48,342 nt of DNA from Candidatus Avigastranaerophilus sp. (GCA_045639725.1 JAZUDR010000018.1:1-48342), one strand, 5' to 3'; positions 40,369-48,330 are shown, numbered from the stretch's first letter. The notes: generated by a model from the letters alone, not told the origin. Numbers and translations are program-made.

Positions 40369-42357
40369 TTACTTCTTAAGAAGTGATTTGATTGATTCTG
40401 CGTTGAAGAGATCGCCGAGGGTATCAGAGAAACCAGATTCTGATTCAGCCTGATATTTTCTGAGTTCCTTAGCATCGCTGTCCATGTTAGCTTCCTTGAT
40501 GGAGAGTTTCAGTCTGCGATTCTTGCGGTCAAGTTCGAGAACCTTATAGGTTACTTCATCGCCAACCTTAACTGCTTCAGCGGGGTTGTTAACTCTGTTA
40601 GCAGAAAGCTGAGAAATGTGAACAAAACCTGTTACGTTTTCAGCAACTTCTACTTCAGCGCCGTTGTCGAGAAGAGCAGTGATTTTGCCCTGATGAATGC
40701 TTTCTTTTGTATACTTGCGTTCGATTTCTTTCCAAGGATCATCCTGCATTCTGCGGAGTGACAAACCGATTTTCTGTTTGCCCTTGTCGATTTCGTATAC
40801 AACTACAGTTACCTGATCACCAACTTTGAGAACATCTTCTGGCTTTTCTACATCGCCCTGCCAAGAGAGTTCAGATACGTGGAGGAGACCTTCAAGACCG
40901 TTAGCCAACTGAACGAAAGCACCGTAAGAAACGATATTCTTTACAACGCCAGTTACCTGTTCGCCAATCTTGTATTCGTATTCAACCTTGTTCCATGGAT
41001 CGTCAGTAGTCTGCTTGAGACCGAGAGACAATCTGTGGTTAGCTGAGTCGATATTAAGAATCTTTACGCTAACTTCCTGACCCTTTTCAAGGATTTCTTT
41101 TGGATGGTTAACTTTCTTTACCCAATCCATGTCAGAAATATGAAGGAGACCTTCAACACCCTGAGCGATTTCGATGAAAGCGCCGAATTCAGTCATATTG
41201 TTAACTTTGCCCTTAACGATATCACCGATCTTATACTGAGAAGTTACCTGATCCCATGGATGTGGAAGAACTTCTTTGTAAGAGAGAGAAATTCTCTTCT
41301 TGTCTTTATCGATTTCTTTTACTACTACATCGATTTCGTCGCCAGTCTTTACAACTTCGCTTGGGTGCTTAATGTTTCTAGCCCAAGAAAGGTCAGAAAT
41401 GTGAACAAGGCCTTCAACGCCTTCTTCCAATTCTACGAAAGCACCGAAGTCCATAAGGTTCTTAACCTTACCATGATACTTCTGACCAGCTTTGTAGTTG
41501 GTGTCTACAGTTTCCCAAGGATTGTTCTTCTTCTGCTTGAGACCAAGGCTGATTTTGCCCTTTTCTGCATCCATCTTCAAAATCTTGGCTTCTACTTCGT
41601 CGCCTGGATTTACAACTTCGCGTGGGTTAGAAATTACTGACCAGCTGAGGTCGTTTCTGTGAATCAAACCTTCAACGCCGTTGCCGAGGTCTACGAATGC
41701 ACCATATTCAACGATTCTTGCAACAGTGCCTTTGATAACATCATCAACATGATACTTAGCAAAAATATCAGCTTTTGCTTTGTCACGAACTTCATCGAGG
41801 ATAGCGCGTTCTGAAACTACGATGTTCTTGCGCTTGCGGCCGAATTCAGTAACGATCATCTTGAAAGTCTTGCCGATGTTTTCTTTTGCGTTCTTACCGT
41901 GAGAAAGCTGGCTCTGTGGAAGGAATGCTCTGTTACCAAGAACAGTTACATTGTAGCCGCCCTTGATGCGTTCTTTGAGAACGCCTTCTACTGGAGTCTT
42001 GTTCTGGAAAGCCTGGTCGAGTTCATCCCATGAACCCTGTTCCTGAGCTCTGCGATAAGAAAGAAGAATCTGGCCCTGCTTGTCATCGATCTTCTTAACA
42101 TAAACCTTGATTGGGTCACCGACATTATATTTGTCAGCTTCACCAGCATCAAATTCTTCAGATGGAACGATACCGTCAGACTTATAACCTAAGTCTACGT
42201 AAATGCCACTGTTGTTCTTATCGATAACAGTGCCTGTTACGATGGCCCCTCTGGAGATAGGTCGGAACTGTTCGCTTTCGTTAAGTGCCTGTTCCATAGT
42301 CATCTGGTTTTCATTAGCACTTTCTTGTTCCTGTTTTGTATTTTCTAAATCAGTCAT
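40369..42357 (-). CDS. rpsA: 30S ribosomal protein S1, probable internal start within the fusion ORF
   Basis: About seven S1/OB repeats (GAFV.L..GVEGL.HIS.LSW); GGAGG-5 nt-ATG at Met241. Confidence 0.85.
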   Translation of the reverse strand: MTDLENTKQEQESANENQMTMEQALNESEQFRPISRGAIVTGTVIDKNNSGIYVDLGYKSDGIVPSEEFDAGEADKYNVGDPIKVYVKKIDDKQGQILLSYRRAQEQGSWDELDQAFQNKTPVEGVLKERIKGGYNVTVLGNRAFLPQSQLSHGKNAKENIGKTFKMIVTEFGRKRKNIVVSERAILDEVRDKAKADIFAKYHVDDVIKGTVARIVEYGAFVDLGNGVEGLIHRNDLSWSVISNPREVVNPGDEVEAKILKMDAEKGKISLGLKQKKNNPWETVDTNYKAGQKYHGKVKNLMDFGAFVELEEGVEGLVHISDLSWARNIKHPSEVVKTGDEIDVVVKEIDKDKKRISLSYKEVLPHPWDQVTSQYKIGDIVKGKVNNMTEFGAFIEIAQGVEGLLHISDMDWVKKVNHPKEILEKGQEVSVKILNIDSANHRLSLGLKQTTDDPWNKVEYEYKIGEQVTGVVKNIVSYGAFVQLANGLEGLLHVSELSWQGDVEKPEDVLKVGDQVTVVVYEIDKGKQKIGLSLRRMQDDPWKEIERKYTKESIHQGKITALLDNGAEVEVAENVTGFVHISQLSANRVNNPAEAVKVGDEVTYKVLELDRKNRRLKLSIKEANMDSDAKELRKYQAESESGFSDTLGDLFNAESIKSLLKK

Positions 42358-43077
42358 GGTTTCCTCCGTTGGGATCAAAGCGTCCCGAGTGTTTGTTACA
42401 ATTATGATAATCCGATCAATAACCTGTTCAATAGTCATTGCGGTGGTATCCAGCAAGACTGCATCCTTGGCCTGGACCAAAGGTGCTACATCTCTATTGG
42501 AATCAAGCTGGTCTCGTCTGGCGATATCCTGCTTGAGCTGTTCGAGGTCTGCTTCAAAGCCTTTTTCGATTAAATCGCGATAACGTCTTTGAGCTCTTTC
42601 TTCGATTGAAGCTGTTAAGAAAATCTTTGTTCTAGCATTTGGGAAAACAACAGTTCCAATGTCTCTGCCATCTACTACCCATTTGCCGTTATTACCAATT
42701 TCGCGCTGAAGCTTGGTCATAACTTCACGAACTTCCTTAACTGCAGATACTGCAGATACGTTCTTGGAAACTTCAGGAGTTCTGATTTCCTTAGTGACTT
42801 CTACATCTTTAAGAAATACACGTGGTTGGCTAGAATCTTTGCTGTGCTCAAATCTGAGACCGCTTTCTTCTGCGCAGCGTTTGAGCGCCTGATTGTCTGA
42901 AAAATCAATCTTTTCGTTCAGTGCTTTAAAGGTAACTGCACGATACATGGCACCAGTGTCTAGATAACCATAACCAAGCTTGTCAGCAGCTTTCTTTGCT
43001 ACAGTGCTTTTGCCAGCGCCGGCAGGACCGTCTATGGCAACTACTTCACAGAAGTGTTTCTTATTCTGCAATTTCAA
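40369..43077 (-). CDS. cmk: In-frame cytidylate kinase - 30S ribosomal protein S1 fusion
   Basis: aa 1-230 are Cmk (IDGPAGAGKST, DTGAMYR, DGRDIGTVV, RD..DS.R..APL); no stop before the S1 repeats. TTG start after AGGAG. Confidence 0.88.
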   Translation of the reverse strand: MKLQNKKHFCEVVAIDGPAGAGKSTVAKKAADKLGYGYLDTGAMYRAVTFKALNEKIDFSDNQALKRCAEESGLRFEHSKDSSQPRVFLKDVEVTKEIRTPEVSKNVSAVSAVKEVREVMTKLQREIGNNGKWVVDGRDIGTVVFPNARTKIFLTASIEERAQRRYRDLIEKGFEADLEQLKQDIARRDQLDSNRDVAPLVQAKDAVLLDTTAMTIEQVIDRIIIIVTNTRDALIPTEETMTDLENTKQEQESANENQMTMEQALNESEQFRPISRGAIVTGTVIDKNNSGIYVDLGYKSDGIVPSEEFDAGEADKYNVGDPIKVYVKKIDDKQGQILLSYRRAQEQGSWDELDQAFQNKTPVEGVLKERIKGGYNVTVLGNRAFLPQSQLSHGKNAKENIGKTFKMIVTEFGRKRKNIVVSERAILDEVRDKAKADIFAKYHVDDVIKGTVARIVEYGAFVDLGNGVEGLIHRNDLSWSVISNPREVVNPGDEVEAKILKMDAEKGKISLGLKQKKNNPWETVDTNYKAGQKYHGKVKNLMDFGAFVELEEGVEGLVHISDLSWARNIKHPSEVVKTGDEIDVVVKEIDKDKKRISLSYKEVLPHPWDQVTSQYKIGDIVKGKVNNMTEFGAFIEIAQGVEGLLHISDMDWVKKVNHPKEILEKGQEVSVKILNIDSANHRLSLGLKQTTDDPWNKVEYEYKIGEQVTGVVKNIVSYGAFVQLANGLEGLLHVSELSWQGDVEKPEDVLKVGDQVTVVVYEIDKGKQKIGLSLRRMQDDPWKEIERKYTKESIHQGKITALLDNGAEVEVAENVTGFVHISQLSANRVNNPAEAVKVGDEVTYKVLELDRKNRRLKLSIKEANMDSDAKELRKYQAESESGFSDTLGDLFNAESIKSLLKK

Positions 43078-43170: not shown

Positions 43171-44484
43171 TTATTTTTTATGGTTTGGCTTGCCTAGCAT
43201 AATGGCAAGAATCTGGTCATCAGTTTCAACCATACCCTGTGAAGCTATTCTACCAATATTTGCAAGGCTGGTTTCAATATCGTCACCCAAGACTCCGTTG
43301 GTTGTTGGCAATCTCAAACCTTTAATAGCCATCATTGCTGCCTGAAAAGATGAGTCTGCTGCACAGACAAGTTTCATCGCGCAGCCTACCTTAGCACCGT
43401 CACATATTACGCCAGTGATACTGCCAACCATATTATTTATTGCAGCAGTCGCTTGTTCTAAAGTTCCGCCCATCAAATAGGTAATGCTTGCTGTTAACCC
43501 AACGCCAGCGCATACTACACATCCGCACATTGCAGAAAGGGTTCCTGTGTGGTGCTTTATAACGCTTGTAATACCATGAGCAATTGCTAATGCCTCTGAT
43601 AACTTTTTGTCATCGGCTTTGAGTTCTTTGGCTAAGACATAGAGTGGTAGTGAAATTGCTAATCCTTGATTGCCAGAGCCTGCACTTGTCATTACTTGTA
43701 GGTCACATCCTGACATTCTTGCATCAACTGCTGCTGAAGTCAGGGCTTTGGCTTTGTTGATTATATCGTTACCGATTAAGCCCTCTGAAATCATTTCATT
43801 ATAAATATTTCCGATATTAAGGAAGCCTTCGCGATGCAAACCGGCTTCTGCTACCTTTATATTCATTTTGACTCCATCAAGCATAATCTTTCTTATGTCT
43901 TCTGAAAGATTGCCGATGTTATTCCAGATTTCTGTGAAAGAAGCTTCGGACAATGCTTTGCGCTGAGCTAATAATTCGCCGGCTCCATTGTCGCCTGTGG
44001 AATGAGATGAAAATTGAACTGTTCCGTTCTTTTCTAAAAGAATTATGTTTTCATGGCTTCCTGATATTACGCACCTGCCAACGTTATTTAAATCATCTGT
44101 TACAGATACGTCCATATAAAGCCCATGTTTTTCTGCTACAAGGTCAATTTTTATAACGTCGTTCTTTACCAACTCTTGGGCTTTTGACAGCCATTCGTCT
44201 GTCATGTTTTCCAACAGTGTTAAATCCGGATTTATAGCTGGGGAAAGACAGCCTAGAGCCGCTGCAAGTATGATACCTCTTTGCCCACCAGTGCCAGGAA
44301 TGCCTACTTCCATAGCGTTCTTTAAAAGATTGGTAGATAACTTTAACAAGACCTTTGCTATATTACCAGAGGTTTGTCTTTTTGCATGACAAGCGCCAAG
44401 GGCAATGGCTATCGGTTCTGTACAGCCAAGAGCTGCCTTCAGGTCCATTCTTAAAGTTTTTTCTAACACTTCTAAGCTGGTCAT
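43171..44484 (-). CDS. cyuA: UPF0597 family L-cysteine desulfidase / serine dehydratase alpha-like Fe-S protein
   Basis: ALGCTEP, KNAM.VGIP, ARMSG, GSGNQG, LSAMCGC and ICDGAK.GCA.K. Confidence 0.8.
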   Translation of the reverse strand: MTSLEVLEKTLRMDLKAALGCTEPIAIALGACHAKRQTSGNIAKVLLKLSTNLLKNAMEVGIPGTGGQRGIILAAALGCLSPAINPDLTLLENMTDEWLSKAQELVKNDVIKIDLVAEKHGLYMDVSVTDDLNNVGRCVISGSHENIILLEKNGTVQFSSHSTGDNGAGELLAQRKALSEASFTEIWNNIGNLSEDIRKIMLDGVKMNIKVAEAGLHREGFLNIGNIYNEMISEGLIGNDIINKAKALTSAAVDARMSGCDLQVMTSAGSGNQGLAISLPLYVLAKELKADDKKLSEALAIAHGITSVIKHHTGTLSAMCGCVVCAGVGLTASITYLMGGTLEQATAAINNMVGSITGVICDGAKVGCAMKLVCAADSSFQAAMMAIKGLRLPTTNGVLGDDIETSLANIGRIASQGMVETDDQILAIMLGKPNHKK

Positions 44485-44512: not shown

Positions 44513-47500
44513 TTAGAATGCGTCAAAACCGCCACTAAAACCATCTGAAGATGCTTCACTTGGTTTTTCTGTTGCTTCTGTAGGTTTTGTGTCACTGGCA
44601 GTAGTTGTTTGGGGGTCTACTGTATTATCAGCAACTGTTTCTGCTGGCTTTTCTGCAGAAGCATTTTCTGTAATAGGTTTTTCTTCCTGTGACGCTATGT
44701 TTTCTGTAGAAACAGTAATGCTGGCTGTAGTTTCTTCTGTTTTTGCTGCATTGTCGGATGAAATGGGCTTAGCTTCTGTGGCTGCTGGTTCATTGTCGAA
44801 ATTATCGAACCCACTGCTAGCAGCTGGTTGGTCAGAAGTCTTAGCTTCATTGTCGAGGCTATCAAAACCACCTTCAAAGCCATTGCTTGAAGCAGGCTTA
44901 TCAGCGTCCTTTGACTCATTGTCGAAGCTATCAAAACCACCTTCAAAGCCATTGCTTGAAGCAGGCTTATCAGCGGCCTTTGGCTCATTGTCGAAACTGT
45001 CGAAACCACCTTCAAAGCCATTGTTTGAAGCAGGCTTATTAGCAGCCTTTGGCTCATCGAAACTGTCGAAGCCACCTTCAAAGCCATTGCTTGAAGTTGG
45101 CTTATTAGCAGCCTTAGGTTCGTTACCGAAACCACCAAAACCACTATCAAAACCGCTTGTTGTGGATGTGTTATTGTCATTGAAGCCGTTTGCTGTATTG
45201 TCAGATTTTCTCTTTTCTACGGCTTGTTGAATTTCTTCCTTAGAGGGTTTTAAGCTTTTGAATCTGTCTGGCTTATATTTGTCTGCGCCATTTTTCTTGG
45301 CTCTAAGCATATCTTCATCTGTTGGAAGTATTATGTCTTCTGTTCCAAGCAAAGGATCTTCGTATATGGCACTCGAACGGTTTTTGGAAAATGCTAGGTC
45401 GTCAAGGTCATTGAGACCATGAATTCTTGCATATTCTTTCTTGTAAGTGGTTTCTGTTGGAGCAAAGCCAATAATATCTTGTATTGCTGGCGAATAATTT
45501 ACTGTTAAACCGACCACTACAATAGCAATCATAGTTATAAGCTTAATAAGAATATTGAGTGAAGGAGCAGATGTATCTTTGAATGGTTCACCTACAGTAT
45601 TAGCAACAACTGTTGATTTATGGCATTCAGAACCTTTTCCACCGTATTCTCCGTTTTCAATGAATCTTTTCGCATTGTTCCAGGCTCCACCAGCATTTGA
45701 CATCATAGTTGCCAAGGCGAGACTTGCGATAATGCTACCGACTATCATTCCTACTACACCAGCTACACCAAGGAACAGACCAACCAAAACCGGAATGATG
45801 ATAGCAATTAGGCTAGGAGTTACCATTTCCTTCAGAGAACCATATGTTGAAATAGAAATACAGGCAGAGTAATCTGCTTTGGTTTCACTATTGAACAGTC
45901 CGGCTATGTCTTTAATCTGTTTGCGTATTTCTTCTACTATGTTGTTGGCTGCTTTTCCTACTGCTTTTAGAGAAAGAGCGCTAAATACCAAAACTAGCAT
46001 TGAACCAATTAAAATACCTACAAGAACGATTGGATTCATGAGATTGATATTGTAATAACTCATGAAGTTTTGTATCGTTGCCTTTTCAATAGGAATTCTC
46101 GTGGTTTCTGTTGTGTATATATATTTGCTTAGTTCTGCGCTACTAAAATTAGCTGCTTTGATTAATGACATTCTGATTTCTTCAAAATATGCACATAGAA
46201 GTGCAATTGTAGTAAGAGCAGCAGAACCTATGGCAAAGCCTTTTCCTATGGCTGATGTTGTATTTGCAAGAGAATCAAGTGATGTAAGACGCTTTTGGGT
46301 TTCTGGTGACATGCCAGACAACTGTGCGTTTTTACTTGAATTACCAATTATTGGGCCAAAAGCATCAGTTGCTAAGGTGACACCAAGTGTGGATAACATA
46401 CTTACTGCTGCTATTCCTATTCCGTAAAAACCTATTGCTGAATTTGAGAAACCGTCTGCGAAACCATAGGCTAGTGTGATAGCAAAACAAATTGTTATTA
46501 TTGGTATTGCTGTTGAAAGCATACCAGTAGCTATACCTTCTATAATTACTGTGCCAGGACCGGTTGAAGACTGGTCTGCAATGTAAAATGTCGGTTTGTA
46601 GTTTTCAGATGTATAGTAATGAGTTGACCAATTGATGATTATTCCAGCCATAAGACCAGATATAATTGAACCAAGAAGCTGGAAATGATGAGGCAAAAGC
46701 GAATTTATTAGTGCTATGCTTCCTATTGCTGTGAAAAATCCTGCAAAATTGGTGCCGCGGTTTAATGATTTCATTAATTCGCTTTGAGAAGCATCTTCTT
46801 TTGTATTCACGCAGTAGATGCCAAAGATTGAGAATACAATGCCTACACCGGCTATTGCCAATGGAAGAAGAATTGAATTCAACTGATAACGGAGCAGGTC
46901 CTGAGTGTTGAAGGCTGCTGCGCCAAGGGCTGCTGTCGCGAGGATTGAACCGCAATATGATTCATAAAGGTCTGCGCCAATAGCTGAAATGTCTCCAACA
47001 TTATTACCTATATTGTTGGTTATGACAGCAGGATTACGTGGGTCATCTTCCGTAATATCGGTTTCTGTTTTGGTTATTAGAGTAGCGCTTATGTCTGCAG
47101 CCTTGGTGAATATGCCACCACCAATTCTGGCAAACAATGCTTGAGAAGTTGCACCAATGGCAAAAGTAAGCATTATAGTGGTGATTTCAGTGTAACTATG
47201 TATTGCAAAAATACTATCCTTGAACATGCCTTGGTTTTCAAGAACATAATTTAGGATTTTCCACCATATTGAGATATCAAGAAGACCTAAGCCGACTATA
47301 ACAAATCCGGTTGTTGCAGCGCTCCGGAATGCAAGCTGAAGGGCAGAATTCAAGGATTCTCCTGCTGCTACGGCTGTTCTATTGCTGGCGCTCGTAGCTG
47401 TTTTCAATCCAAGGTAACTTGATAGTGCAGAGAAAATACCTCCCGTAAGGAAGGCTATTGGGGTCCATGGGCTTTGCACTTCTAGGACGAAGGCTAAGAA

Positions 47501-47716
47501 TGCAAAAAAAGCAAAAGCAATAATGAAGAATAAACCAGTAATCTTGTATTGAGCAAATAAGTATGATTTGGTTCCTTCTTGTATATAACCTGCTATTTCC
47601 TGGTTCTTTTCATTACCAGGATTTGATTGCTTCATTAGGGAATAAAAATAATATGCATAAACCAAAGCAAGCAAAGAGCCTGCTGGGGCTAACCAAAACA
47701 GTTGAGCTGCGTCCAC
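44513..47716 (-). CDS. hppA: Membrane-integral pyrophosphatase homologue (HppA/Na+-PPase-like) with degenerate active site and long repeat tail
   Basis: Full TM scaffold with GGGIFTKAAD, EDDPRNP, ADLYESY, KGFAIGSAAL and PFKDTS.PSLNILIK; multiple Asp substitutions; about 325 extra C-terminal aa; GTG start after AAGGAGGT. Confidence 0.88.
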   Translation of the reverse strand: MDAAQLFWLAPAGSLLALVYAYYFYSLMKQSNPGNEKNQEIAGYIQEGTKSYLFAQYKITGLFFIIAFAFFAFLAFVLEVQSPWTPIAFLTGGIFSALSSYLGLKTATSASNRTAVAAGESLNSALQLAFRSAATTGFVIVGLGLLDISIWWKILNYVLENQGMFKDSIFAIHSYTEITTIMLTFAIGATSQALFARIGGGIFTKAADISATLITKTETDITEDDPRNPAVITNNIGNNVGDISAIGADLYESYCGSILATAALGAAAFNTQDLLRYQLNSILLPLAIAGVGIVFSIFGIYCVNTKEDASQSELMKSLNRGTNFAGFFTAIGSIALINSLLPHHFQLLGSIISGLMAGIIINWSTHYYTSENYKPTFYIADQSSTGPGTVIIEGIATGMLSTAIPIITICFAITLAYGFADGFSNSAIGFYGIGIAAVSMLSTLGVTLATDAFGPIIGNSSKNAQLSGMSPETQKRLTSLDSLANTTSAIGKGFAIGSAALTTIALLCAYFEEIRMSLIKAANFSSAELSKYIYTTETTRIPIEKATIQNFMSYYNINLMNPIVLVGILIGSMLVLVFSALSLKAVGKAANNIVEEIRKQIKDIAGLFNSETKADYSACISISTYGSLKEMVTPSLIAIIIPVLVGLFLGVAGVVGMIVGSIIASLALATMMSNAGGAWNNAKRFIENGEYGGKGSECHKSTVVANTVGEPFKDTSAPSLNILIKLITMIAIVVVGLTVNYSPAIQDIIGFAPTETTYKKEYARIHGLNDLDDLAFSKNRSSAIYEDPLLGTEDIILPTDEDMLRAKKNGADKYKPDRFKSLKPSKEEIQQAVEKRKSDNTANGFNDNNTSTTSGFDSGFGGFGNEPKAANKPTSSNGFEGGFDSFDEPKAANKPASNNGFEGGFDSFDNEPKAADKPASSNGFEGGFDSFDNESKDADKPASSNGFEGGFDSLDNEAKTSDQPAASSGFDNFDNEPAATEAKPISSDNAAKTEETTASITVSTENIASQEEKPITENASAEKPAETVADNTVDPQTTTASDTKPTEATEKPSEASSDGFSGGFDAF
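44790..45157 (-). repeat. Coding tandem repeat, 66-69 bp unit (22-23 aa SNGFEGGFDSFDNEPKAADKPAS), about 6 copies including degenerate ends
   Basis: CCACCTTCAAAGCCATTG recurs at 44868, 44937, 45006 and 45072 (spacing 69, 69, 66). Confidence 0.92.
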
Positions 47717-47822: not shown

Positions 47823-47856
47823 AAAAACAAAAAGCCTCGCATGAAGCGAGGCCTTT
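47823..47856 (-). terminator. Intrinsic terminator after the DUF805-like gene
   Basis: Minus strand GCCTCGC-TTCAT-GCGAGGC-TTTTTGTTTTT. Confidence 0.8.
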
Positions 47857-47874
47857 CGATTACTTAATTATTAA

Positions 47875-48330
47875 TCAGGCATTTGTCTGTTCTTGCTGAG
47901 CTGGAGTTTCAGTAGTTACAGTTGATGTTGTTGTATCATTATCTTTAGAAGCGAAGCAGCAGAAAACAATAAGAATGATACCACAGATTGTTCCAAGACC
48001 ACCGAGAAGAATTGCTGCAAGACCACTAAGAGCAGCAACAATGGCACCAATAACTGGGATACTAGCAAGTATGGTAGCTCCTAAGCCAATGATACTAGCT
48101 AAAAGACCAGGAACAGCGAGAAAAACTAACCATTTTGAACGGCCAGCATCAATAAGTCTTCTCATGGTTGGGCCAATGCCCATTACTCCTAATGCTATAG
48201 GAGCAATTACATTGATAACAGGAATACAAGCTAATATGCAAGATGCAATTGATAGACCAAATGCATAGGTCCAGAACTTGGTTCTATTTAATTTACCGTC
48301 GAAAACAAAACAATCCTTCAAAACTTCCAT
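47875..48330 (-). CDS. DUF805-like (YhaH/YhaI) membrane protein
   Basis: F.G..NR..FW start, RRL.D.GRS.W motif, several TM helices. Confidence 0.8.
   Translation of the reverse strand: MEVLKDCFVFDGKLNRTKFWTYAFGLSIASCILACIPVINVIAPIALGVMGIGPTMRRLIDAGRSKWLVFLAVPGLLASIIGLGATILASIPVIGAIVAALSGLAAILLGGLGTICGIILIVFCCFASKDNDTTTSTVTTETPAQQEQTNA

Follow-up and report, generated by a model that had tools for sequence, protein, structure and literature searches.

An intact membrane pyrophosphatase gene with altered catalytic motifs, a candidate pseudoenzyme of Candidatus Avigastranaerophilus

Membrane pyrophosphatases (mPPases) are regarded as a homogeneous family of primary ion pumps, and the protein studied here is named an active sodium pump in databases. 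It is encoded on the minus strand of a 48,342-nucleotide stretch of DNA from Candidatus Avigastranaerophilus sp. (GCA_045639725.1, JAZUDR010000018.1:1-48342; this whole stretch is called the window) by a single open reading frame (ORF) that joins an mPPase domain to a long C-terminal tail (Table 1). An initial annotation, made from the sequence alone, had described an intact ORF at 45495-47716 with a disarmed active site; the frame is intact, but that interval spans the enzyme domain only, that is, the first ~740 residues.

Table 1. Features of the mPPase locus in the window (aa, amino acids; nt, nucleotides; PPi, pyrophosphate). Vigna numbers are counted from the HMMER alignment to Vigna radiata 4A01.
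Feature	Coordinates	Strand	Details
Whole ORF, mPPase domain and C-terminal tail	44513..47716	-	1067 aa; GTG start 47716, stop 44513
mPPase domain, residues 1-745	45482..47716	-	16-helix membrane core; AlphaFold2, Foldseek
Helices 5-6, residues 205-253	46958..47104	-	changed: D212T (Vigna D257), D234N (Vigna D279), D238N (Vigna D283), G210S, P222T, others
Codon 208 (Vigna D253)	47093..47095	-	GAC in the window, AAC (Asn) in the X2 contig
Helices 11-12, residues 451-492	46241..46366	-	changed: D458G (Vigna D507), G462K, R474Q, D478T (Vigna D527), A488S
Helices 15-16, residues 676-725	45542..45691	-	changed: D680N (Vigna D691), K684R, D706N (Vigna D723), D710E (Vigna D727)
C-terminal tail, residues 746-1067	44513..45481	-	~320 aa; predicted disordered, acidic, GF(D/E)-type repeats
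Tandem repeat inside tail	44847..45151		69 bp, 4.5 copies, 23-aa units
Shine-Dalgarno AAGGAGGT	47729-47722	-	5 nt ahead of GTG
Sigma-70-like matches, two overlapping	47791-47758	-	9/12; weak evidence
Strong terminator-like hairpin	47828..47858	-	3' of the upstream DUF805 gene
SDH_alpha-like gene	43171-44484	-	437 aa; flanks the ORF
DUF805 membrane protein gene	47875-48330	-	151 aa; flanks the ORF

The mPPase domain and its catalytic centre

The Pfam H_PPase profile (PF03030) matches residues 15-734 over its entire length (1-645 of 645; 714.8 bits, E 1.5e-214). Among the NCBIfam equivalogs named 'sodium-translocating pyrophosphatase', the protein passes the cutoff of one, NF001960 (712.8 bits vs 546), and falls below those of the other twelve, including the best-scoring, NF001954 (818.4 vs 894). 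Because the NF001960 cutoff is passed, annotation pipelines would still name the protein an active enzyme. An AlphaFold2 model (30 sequences) is confident over residues 1-770, with a predicted local distance difference test score (pLDDT) mostly of 80-93, and Foldseek aligns it with all solved mPPases at TM-scores, normalised to the target, of 0.86-0.92; the model leans on homologues, and this agreement of fold is therefore expected.

The residues around the ion gate place the protein with the sodium-pumping enzymes. The Na+-PPase signature is present as D249 (position 6.50), E252 (6.53), S253 (6.54) and K725 (16.50); in Na+-PPases the gate Glu stands at 6.53, according to excerpts of two papers (PMC9408878, PMC5150537). 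The same four residues are found in Thermotoga maritima TmPPase (4AV3/5LZQ), to which the homology extends over the full length (E 8.9e-111; TM-score to target 0.86-0.89), and the canonical relatives of the window protein carry A12.46, the signature of K+ dependence. The window protein differs from TmPPase in having eight Asp of the Mg2+/PPi site replaced, a Lys gained, Ser at 12.46 and a tail of ~320 aa. Its best-scoring solved relative is the Vigna radiata H+-PPase (4A01; E 1.3e-120), in which all catalytic Asp are intact and the gate Glu lies one helix turn further along (6.57); in the HMMER alignment E252 stands four residues ahead of that position. An excerpt of a further paper gives the rule for K+-dependent mPPases as Ala at 12.46, the position that sets K+ dependence, and Gly or Ala at 12.49 (PMC10897367). 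In the window protein this signature is broken: residue 488 (12.46) is Ser where the 140 canonical sequences of our alignment have Ala, and 12.49 is Gly. We conclude that the gene is the orthologue of the tail-bearing, K+-dependent, Na+-type mPPase of a Riflebacteria-like family, and the names attached to its close homologues are those of Candidatus Riflebacteria.

To describe the catalytic centre we used an alignment of 147 sequences, 140 rows of which are canonical, with Vigna 4A01 as numbering reference, and scored 16 Asp columns, each of them 100% conserved across the canonical rows. Eight of these invariant Asp are replaced in the window protein (D212T, D234N, D238N, D458G, D478T, D680N, D706N and D710E). 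Further changes are K684R, A488S, R474Q and G462K, the last of which puts a new Lys inside the site; no acidic residue is gained near the site, and the net charge of the domain moves from -13 to -6. The key Asp are changed more often than the other invariant columns (8/16 vs 44/242; Fisher p 0.006). The altered motifs listed in the initial annotation are each present as quoted, both in the HMMER alignment to 4A01 and in the alignment to relatives, and its count of about seven lost Asp, four of them D-to-N, becomes eight of 16, again with four D-to-N. Its reading of AWDNAKK as AWNNAKR also stands as a change, with the correction that the first Lys is kept and the second is the one replaced by Arg.

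Much of the surrounding machinery is retained. All four Lys of the catalytic centre are kept (K205, K216, K683 and K713; Vigna K250, K261, K694 and K730), as are the Asp at D208 and D242 in helices 5-6, D451 and D481 in helices 11-12 and D714 in helices 15-16. N485 and K492 are unchanged in helices 11-12, and the gate is complete, with D249, E252 and S253 in helices 5-6 and N721 and the gate Lys K725 in helices 15-16. The motifs ADLYESY, KGFAIGS and SLNILIK, which had been said to persist, do so in the alignment. The protein lacks the complete invariant-Asp set of a competent mPPase (EC 7.1.3.1 / 7.2.3.1), and it would no longer hydrolyse PPi or pump with it.

This pattern of loss and retention has to be weighed against the idea of a working enzyme, either a pyrophosphatase and pump or an enzyme of a related phosphoanhydride, with an altered metal need and with Asn, Glu and the new Lys in place of some of the Mg2+ ligands. 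The retained Lys of the centre and the whole gate speak for it, as do D242 and D714 (Vigna D287 and D731), which we take to be the holders of the nucleophilic water. So do the conservative nature of D710E and the strong purifying selection on the domain described below; Asn can still ligate metals, and residual or altered activity may persist. However, eight Asp present in every one of the 140 canonical sequences have been lost together, a ninth is lost in one strain (D208N), and the K+-site residue at 12.46 has changed. Single replacement of several of these Asp abolishes activity in plant and bacterial (Streptomyces) enzymes. In addition, the orthologue of a second species of the genus (genome G001) has lost a different set, with Lys at the positions of D458 and D680, as in an unused site. 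On this evidence we consider a working enzyme unlikely.

Timing of the change and selection on the gene

Each of the 41 relatives whose genomes were searched has an mPPase gene, and the mPPases of the family, 819-1240 aa in length, have a long C-terminal tail common to all. The nearest relative outside the species is protein P0003, the orthologue of genome G006, whose domain is 80% identical to that of the window protein and has the canonical residue at each of the 34 positions inspected. The maximum-likelihood tree (29 rows) places the window gene as sister to G006 (SH-aLRT 100), with an end branch of 0.30 vs 0.0078, and parsimony assigns 131 changes to the window-gene branch vs 10 to the sister branch. 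Canonical family members (G006/P0003) share the neighbourhood, tail architecture and N-terminus of the window gene and differ from it in a branch 13- to 39-fold shorter. Between the window genome (G000) and G006, the neighbouring SDH_alpha-like gene shows 95.5% identity, with a nonsynonymous divergence (dN) of 0.031. In the tail, dN is 0.115 on the window branch and 0.119 on the sister branch, and the ratio of nonsynonymous to synonymous divergence (omega) is 0.135 vs 0.143 in a canonical pair. The change is recent, and the acceleration is confined to the window gene and, within it, to the enzyme domain; fast evolution of the whole genome is ruled out by the neighbour gene and by the symmetrical evolution of the tail.

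We estimated omega on the two branches from three taxa by the NG86 and LWL85 methods. The window-gene branch has dN 0.098 and synonymous divergence (dS) 0.54, giving an omega of 0.18 (NG86) or 0.21 (LWL85), and the sister branch has dN 0.012 and dS 0.51, giving 0.024 or 0.04; these values are approximate, dS being near saturation (~1.05 between the sisters and ~2 to the outgroup). Variation among strains was taken from assembled contigs of three other studies, with 40 listed places and 4 further unlisted ones, and the single-nucleotide polymorphisms (SNPs) are in this sense partial data. Of 24 SNPs in the domain, 18 are synonymous and 6 non-synonymous, a ratio of non-synonymous to synonymous polymorphism (pN/pS) of ~0.10, where 76% non-synonymous would be expected under neutrality (binomial p 1.8e-7); the tail has 7 synonymous and 9 non-synonymous SNPs (pN/pS ~0.35). 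Neutral simulations that took the coding sequence of the sister as their starting point left none of 300 frames open at only 0.1 substitutions per site. From the low branch omega, the strain SNPs and these simulations we conclude that the gene is maintained by selection after and despite the loss of catalytic residues. A dN/dS below 1, proposed in the initial annotation as a check, is seen both on the branch (~0.18) and among strains (~0.10). The same annotation had coupled canonical relatives with neutral divergence of this copy as evidence against its idea; the canonical sister exists, but the divergence is not neutral (omega ~0.18).

The distribution of changes within the domain can be read from the 258 columns whose conservation reaches 99% or more in the canonical rows. 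Of these 206 are kept and 52 changed, and the changed ones are concentrated in the motif regions of helices 5-6, 11-12 and 15-16 (32/110, vs 20/148 elsewhere; p 0.002); between residues 251 and 425 the figure is 1/29. It might be argued that the gene is simply dying, its function recently lost and its frame still unbroken. The 8- to 39-fold acceleration, the AT bias of the substitutions and the soluble pyrophosphatases that make the enzyme dispensable (see below) would all fit, as would the rate at which formerly invariant columns have changed, 52/258, about as often as variable ones (79/487). However, a dying gene should not show a branch omega of 0.18, an 18:6 excess of synonymous SNPs (p 1.8e-7) or a frame that none of 300 neutral simulations left open. 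Nor would it be expected to lack indels in the contigs of three studies, to keep its tail rate unchanged or to be found in the same state in G001 with an intact frame of 1112 aa. We therefore hold this explanation to be improbable. The canonical sister, the domain-specific acceleration, an omega far below 1 and the open frame instead favour what had been proposed from the start, a probable selective loss of catalysis rather than decay.

The substitutions themselves carry a clear direction: among 129 changes, G>A outnumbers A>G by 55 to 9 and GC>AT outnumbers AT>GC by 81 to 28. This AT-biased mutation of the organism, acting at sites freed from constraint, accounts for the D-to-N, V-to-I, G-to-S and A-to-T replacements. 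The disarming of the site had been called systematic; the D-to-N pattern fits AT-biased drift and is not evidence of directed disarming. Strand-specific hypermutation was tried as a cause of the D-to-N changes and is ruled out, since A<->G and C<->T changes at the first two codon positions stand at 72:21, a ratio matched by canonical pairs (32:9, 43:11 and 47:11).

The altered residues recur in independently assembled sequences. All six proteins of a 90%-identity cluster, each from a separate contig, have identical residues at 26 inspected positions, with no more than 4 domain substitutions relative to the window protein. Contigs from runs X2, X4 and X12, which belong to three other studies and are animal gut or faeces metagenomes by their records, span the whole gene with no indels and no listed difference at the altered codons. 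An artefact (sequencing error, chimeric assembly or a hypermutated clone) might be suspected of a fragmented metagenome-type assembly such as the source (365 contigs, 97.8% complete). With the site residues identical in six of six cluster members and in the contigs of three other studies, with gene order as in relatives and with a strand ratio of 72:21 that leaves no room for hypermutation, its probability is negligible. Sequencing error at the altered codons, which had been named as a possible refutation, was likewise not seen in any of these. The strain of run X2 shows the additional replacement D208N, the ninth catalytic Asp lost, which is what an unused site would show. One contig of run X2, at depth 6 and 90% likeness, joins across 299 nt (45367 to 45667) at helix 16 and the linker; it may represent a deletion, a different organism or an assembly error, and it was left out of the evidence.

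Degenerate mPPases in relatives

The window gene is not a single odd gene, as another species has reached the same outcome and so has an older clade of paralogues. Genome G001, 78% complete and from a second species of the genus, has a syntenic, intact orthologue of 1112 aa on the minus strand (L032 / L044, G001:C229). Its losses, in Vigna numbering, are D253N, D269N, D283N, D500G, D507K, D527E, D691K and D723N, and again key Asp are changed more often than other invariant columns (8/16 vs 42/242; p 0.004). Within the genus the orthologue belongs to the other subclade (support 96), where its branch measures 0.41, compared with 0.035-0.088 for its neighbours, and arithmetic from its dN and dS values gives a branch omega of ~0.19. 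We conclude that this loss is independent of that in the window gene. The two share 22 changed invariant columns where 10 are expected (p 1.3e-5). No close degenerate relative of the G001 protein was found by search, the best matches being canonical at 74%. The G001 mPPase gene has a GC content of 0.324, well under the 0.36-0.39 of its neighbour genes.

Older tail-bearing paralogues with a ruined centre are present in four further genomes (L033 in G008, L034 in G016, L037 in G014 and L038 in G017). They keep 105-184 of the 258 invariant columns and cluster on long branches whose exact placement is unsure, and a canonical mPPase copy is present in all four genomes as well. Such paralogues (P0122, P0123, P0242) resemble the window protein in their tail motifs, their degenerate hydrolytic centre and a largely kept gate. 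They differ from it in being far more diverged and in always sharing a genome with a canonical copy, whereas the window gene is a recent and independent loss in the main orthologue. Public annotation of P0122 and P0123 is 'sodium/proton-translocating pyrophosphatase'. In G014 the canonical mPPase (L030, G014:C22:399249-401537) belongs to a different mPPase clade, near another family of the phylum, and the family-type copy, ~66 kb away on the same contig, is the degenerate one.

Comparing the six degenerate lineages, we find a consistent division between what is kept and what is lost. D6.50, E6.53 and S6.54 are each kept in five of the six and K16.50 in all six, and most Mg2+/PPi Asp are kept in none to two of them; the position of Vigna D507 has become Lys or Arg in three. 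Outside this set, a word-based search with L037, the most diverged paralogue, gave one further relative above 30% identity, P0123. One of the old paralogues was used to query 1.8 billion representative sequences with HMMER; this search, followed by a scan of 268 further proteins, gave about 10 full-length mPPase-like proteins with 6-13 of 14 core residues changed, a scan that was biased towards its query and also caught fragments. Metagenomic proteins P0339, P0322, P0259, P0280, P0317, P0243 and P0246 have 7-11 of the 14 changed, and some of them, the first five, are without the long tail.

These recurrences allow a bolder reading, which we advance tentatively and would not yet favour: that this family may have turned a Na+-PPase into a PPi-independent membrane protein at least three times, abandoning the funnel and keeping the gate, the dimeric core and the periplasmic tail. 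If this is true, these proteins would be the first natural class of pseudo-mPPases, in which sole-copy forms (the window gene and that of G001) would act as ion-binding, ion-conducting or tail-presenting units and the older paralogues as non-catalytic partners of an active copy.

Retained role, tail and gene context

Loss of membrane-bound hydrolysis is tolerable given the other pyrophosphatases of the genome. No family I soluble PPase (PF00719) turned up in any of the five genus genomes searched, so that this family has no part here, and the window genome encodes two family II enzymes, one of 558 aa with a DHH-CBS-DRTGG-DHHA2 architecture (NF011443, 366 bits vs a cutoff of 335) and one of 361 aa (NF003877, 288 bits vs 283). 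The two enzymes explain why hydrolysis at the membrane could be dispensed with and leave the retention of the gene unexplained; the canonical sister also encodes two family II enzymes.

One way in which a catalytically silent copy could be useful is as the non-catalytic partner of an active mPPase in a heterodimer, which it would regulate through half-of-the-sites communication. As described in an excerpt, mPPases are dimeric with communication between subunits (PMC10897367), and the older paralogues of G008, G014, G016 and G017 do coexist with a canonical copy. However, the window genome (97.8% complete) and G001 (78%) each have a single PF03030 match. A regulatory partner of an active PPase had been among the roles first suggested, together with a search for a canonical hppA paralogue elsewhere in the genome; no second mPPase gene was found in the 97.8%-complete window genome by PF03030 search, and the suggestion has no support from it. 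For the window gene we regard a partner role as very improbable.

The reading that we prefer, and think probable, is that of a natural pseudo-mPPase kept for a role without hydrolysis, whose catalytic centre has been released from selection while core, gate and tail are still needed. In this one species, selection on the Mg2+/PPi-binding centre would have ceased and its residues drifted, and the removal of PPi would be left to the two soluble family II enzymes. Purifying selection still acts on the 16-helix core, the residues of the ion gate and the tail, and the retained PPi-independent role would require the folded membrane core together with the tail. A pseudoenzyme is defined, in an excerpt on the subject, as an enzyme fold that lacks conserved catalytic motifs and is yet conserved (PMC10211241). 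The protein fits that definition, which works on sequence: the enzyme fold is predicted, the catalytic motifs are lost and the gene is under selection.

The tail has a pLDDT below 50 from residue 771 and no Pfam match, and the copy number of its repeat varies by strain, giving proteins of 1044, 1067, 1090 and 1113 aa. Canonical and degenerate copies have two conserved tail motifs in common, an acidic linker near residue 800 and a GGFDAF-like end; in the window protein the linker comes soon after helix 16 and the tail ends in GGFDAF. Among 8628 ORFs of at least 80 aa in the window genome, the one that carries the tail motifs is the gene itself. The tail is probably periplasmic, as judged from 16 helices, the number given for mPPases in an excerpt of PMC5150537, and from the OmpA-like domains fused to the same end in other bacteria. 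Such C-terminal OmpA-like extensions are described for some bacterial mPPases in an excerpt of a review (PMC11210485), and proteins combining PF00691 and PF03030 were found. They resemble the window protein in having an addition after helix 16, but the OmpA-like extensions are folded peptidoglycan-binding domains on apparently normal enzymes, whereas the window tail consists of disordered acidic repeats.

The role that we consider most likely is that of a scaffold in the membrane which displays the conserved tail on the periplasmic side, because the evolutionary regime of the tail is unchanged and its motifs outlast the enzyme signature in old paralogues. As a second possibility, the intact gate may bind or conduct ions, passively or under regulation. 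The observations on the tail lend support to the earlier suggestion of an anchor for it. The core is, however, more constrained than the tail (pN/pS ~0.10 vs ~0.35) and would therefore be more than a passive anchor.

Several points pull against our preferred reading and should be set beside it. That same difference in constraint fits a pure anchor imperfectly, no partner or function of the tail was found, and a Protein Atlas search on it gave no usable match. The retained Lys and Asp of the centre and the metal-binding capacity of Asn have been given above, as have the saturation of dS and the partial nature of the strain data. A paralogue may have been missed, G000 being in 365 contigs and G001 78% complete. 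Expression evidence is weak: in a metatranscriptome library, X19, four short contigs cover 8 of 30 bins, and DNA carry-over is possible.

If the hydrolytic centre has been lost from a gene that is still selected, the membrane core of an mPPase would be useful apart from PPi. The protein would then be a ready-made natural 'uncoupled' variant for studying the gate and the dimer without catalysis, and metabolic models built from the genomes of these bacteria, which live in gut and sediment, may be mistaken in including sodium pumping driven by PPi. In the literature we found no description of an mPPase pseudoenzyme, in line with the remark of the initial annotation that it was aware of no such family, and the word 'inactive' is absent from a 2024 review (PMC11210485).

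The signals in front of the gene and its neighbours complete the picture of the locus. The Shine-Dalgarno sequence predicted earlier is there, 5 nt from the GTG, but the 'good promoter' predicted with it is not evidence, as the 5' region has 9 sigma-70-like matches vs 8.9 expected from shuffled sequence. The hairpin upstream terminates the DUF805 gene, and the ORF thus has a 5' region of its own. The SDH_alpha-like gene lies next to the mPPase gene in every one of the four relatives examined (G001, G002, G005 and G006), and the DUF805 gene was matched in G006 only (85% identical). Elsewhere in the window, in the 902-aa product of a minus-strand gene at 40369-43077, cytidylate kinase is fused to a ribosomal protein S1 of six domains (Pfam Cytidylate_kin and 6 x S1), a fusion conserved in G001 and G002.

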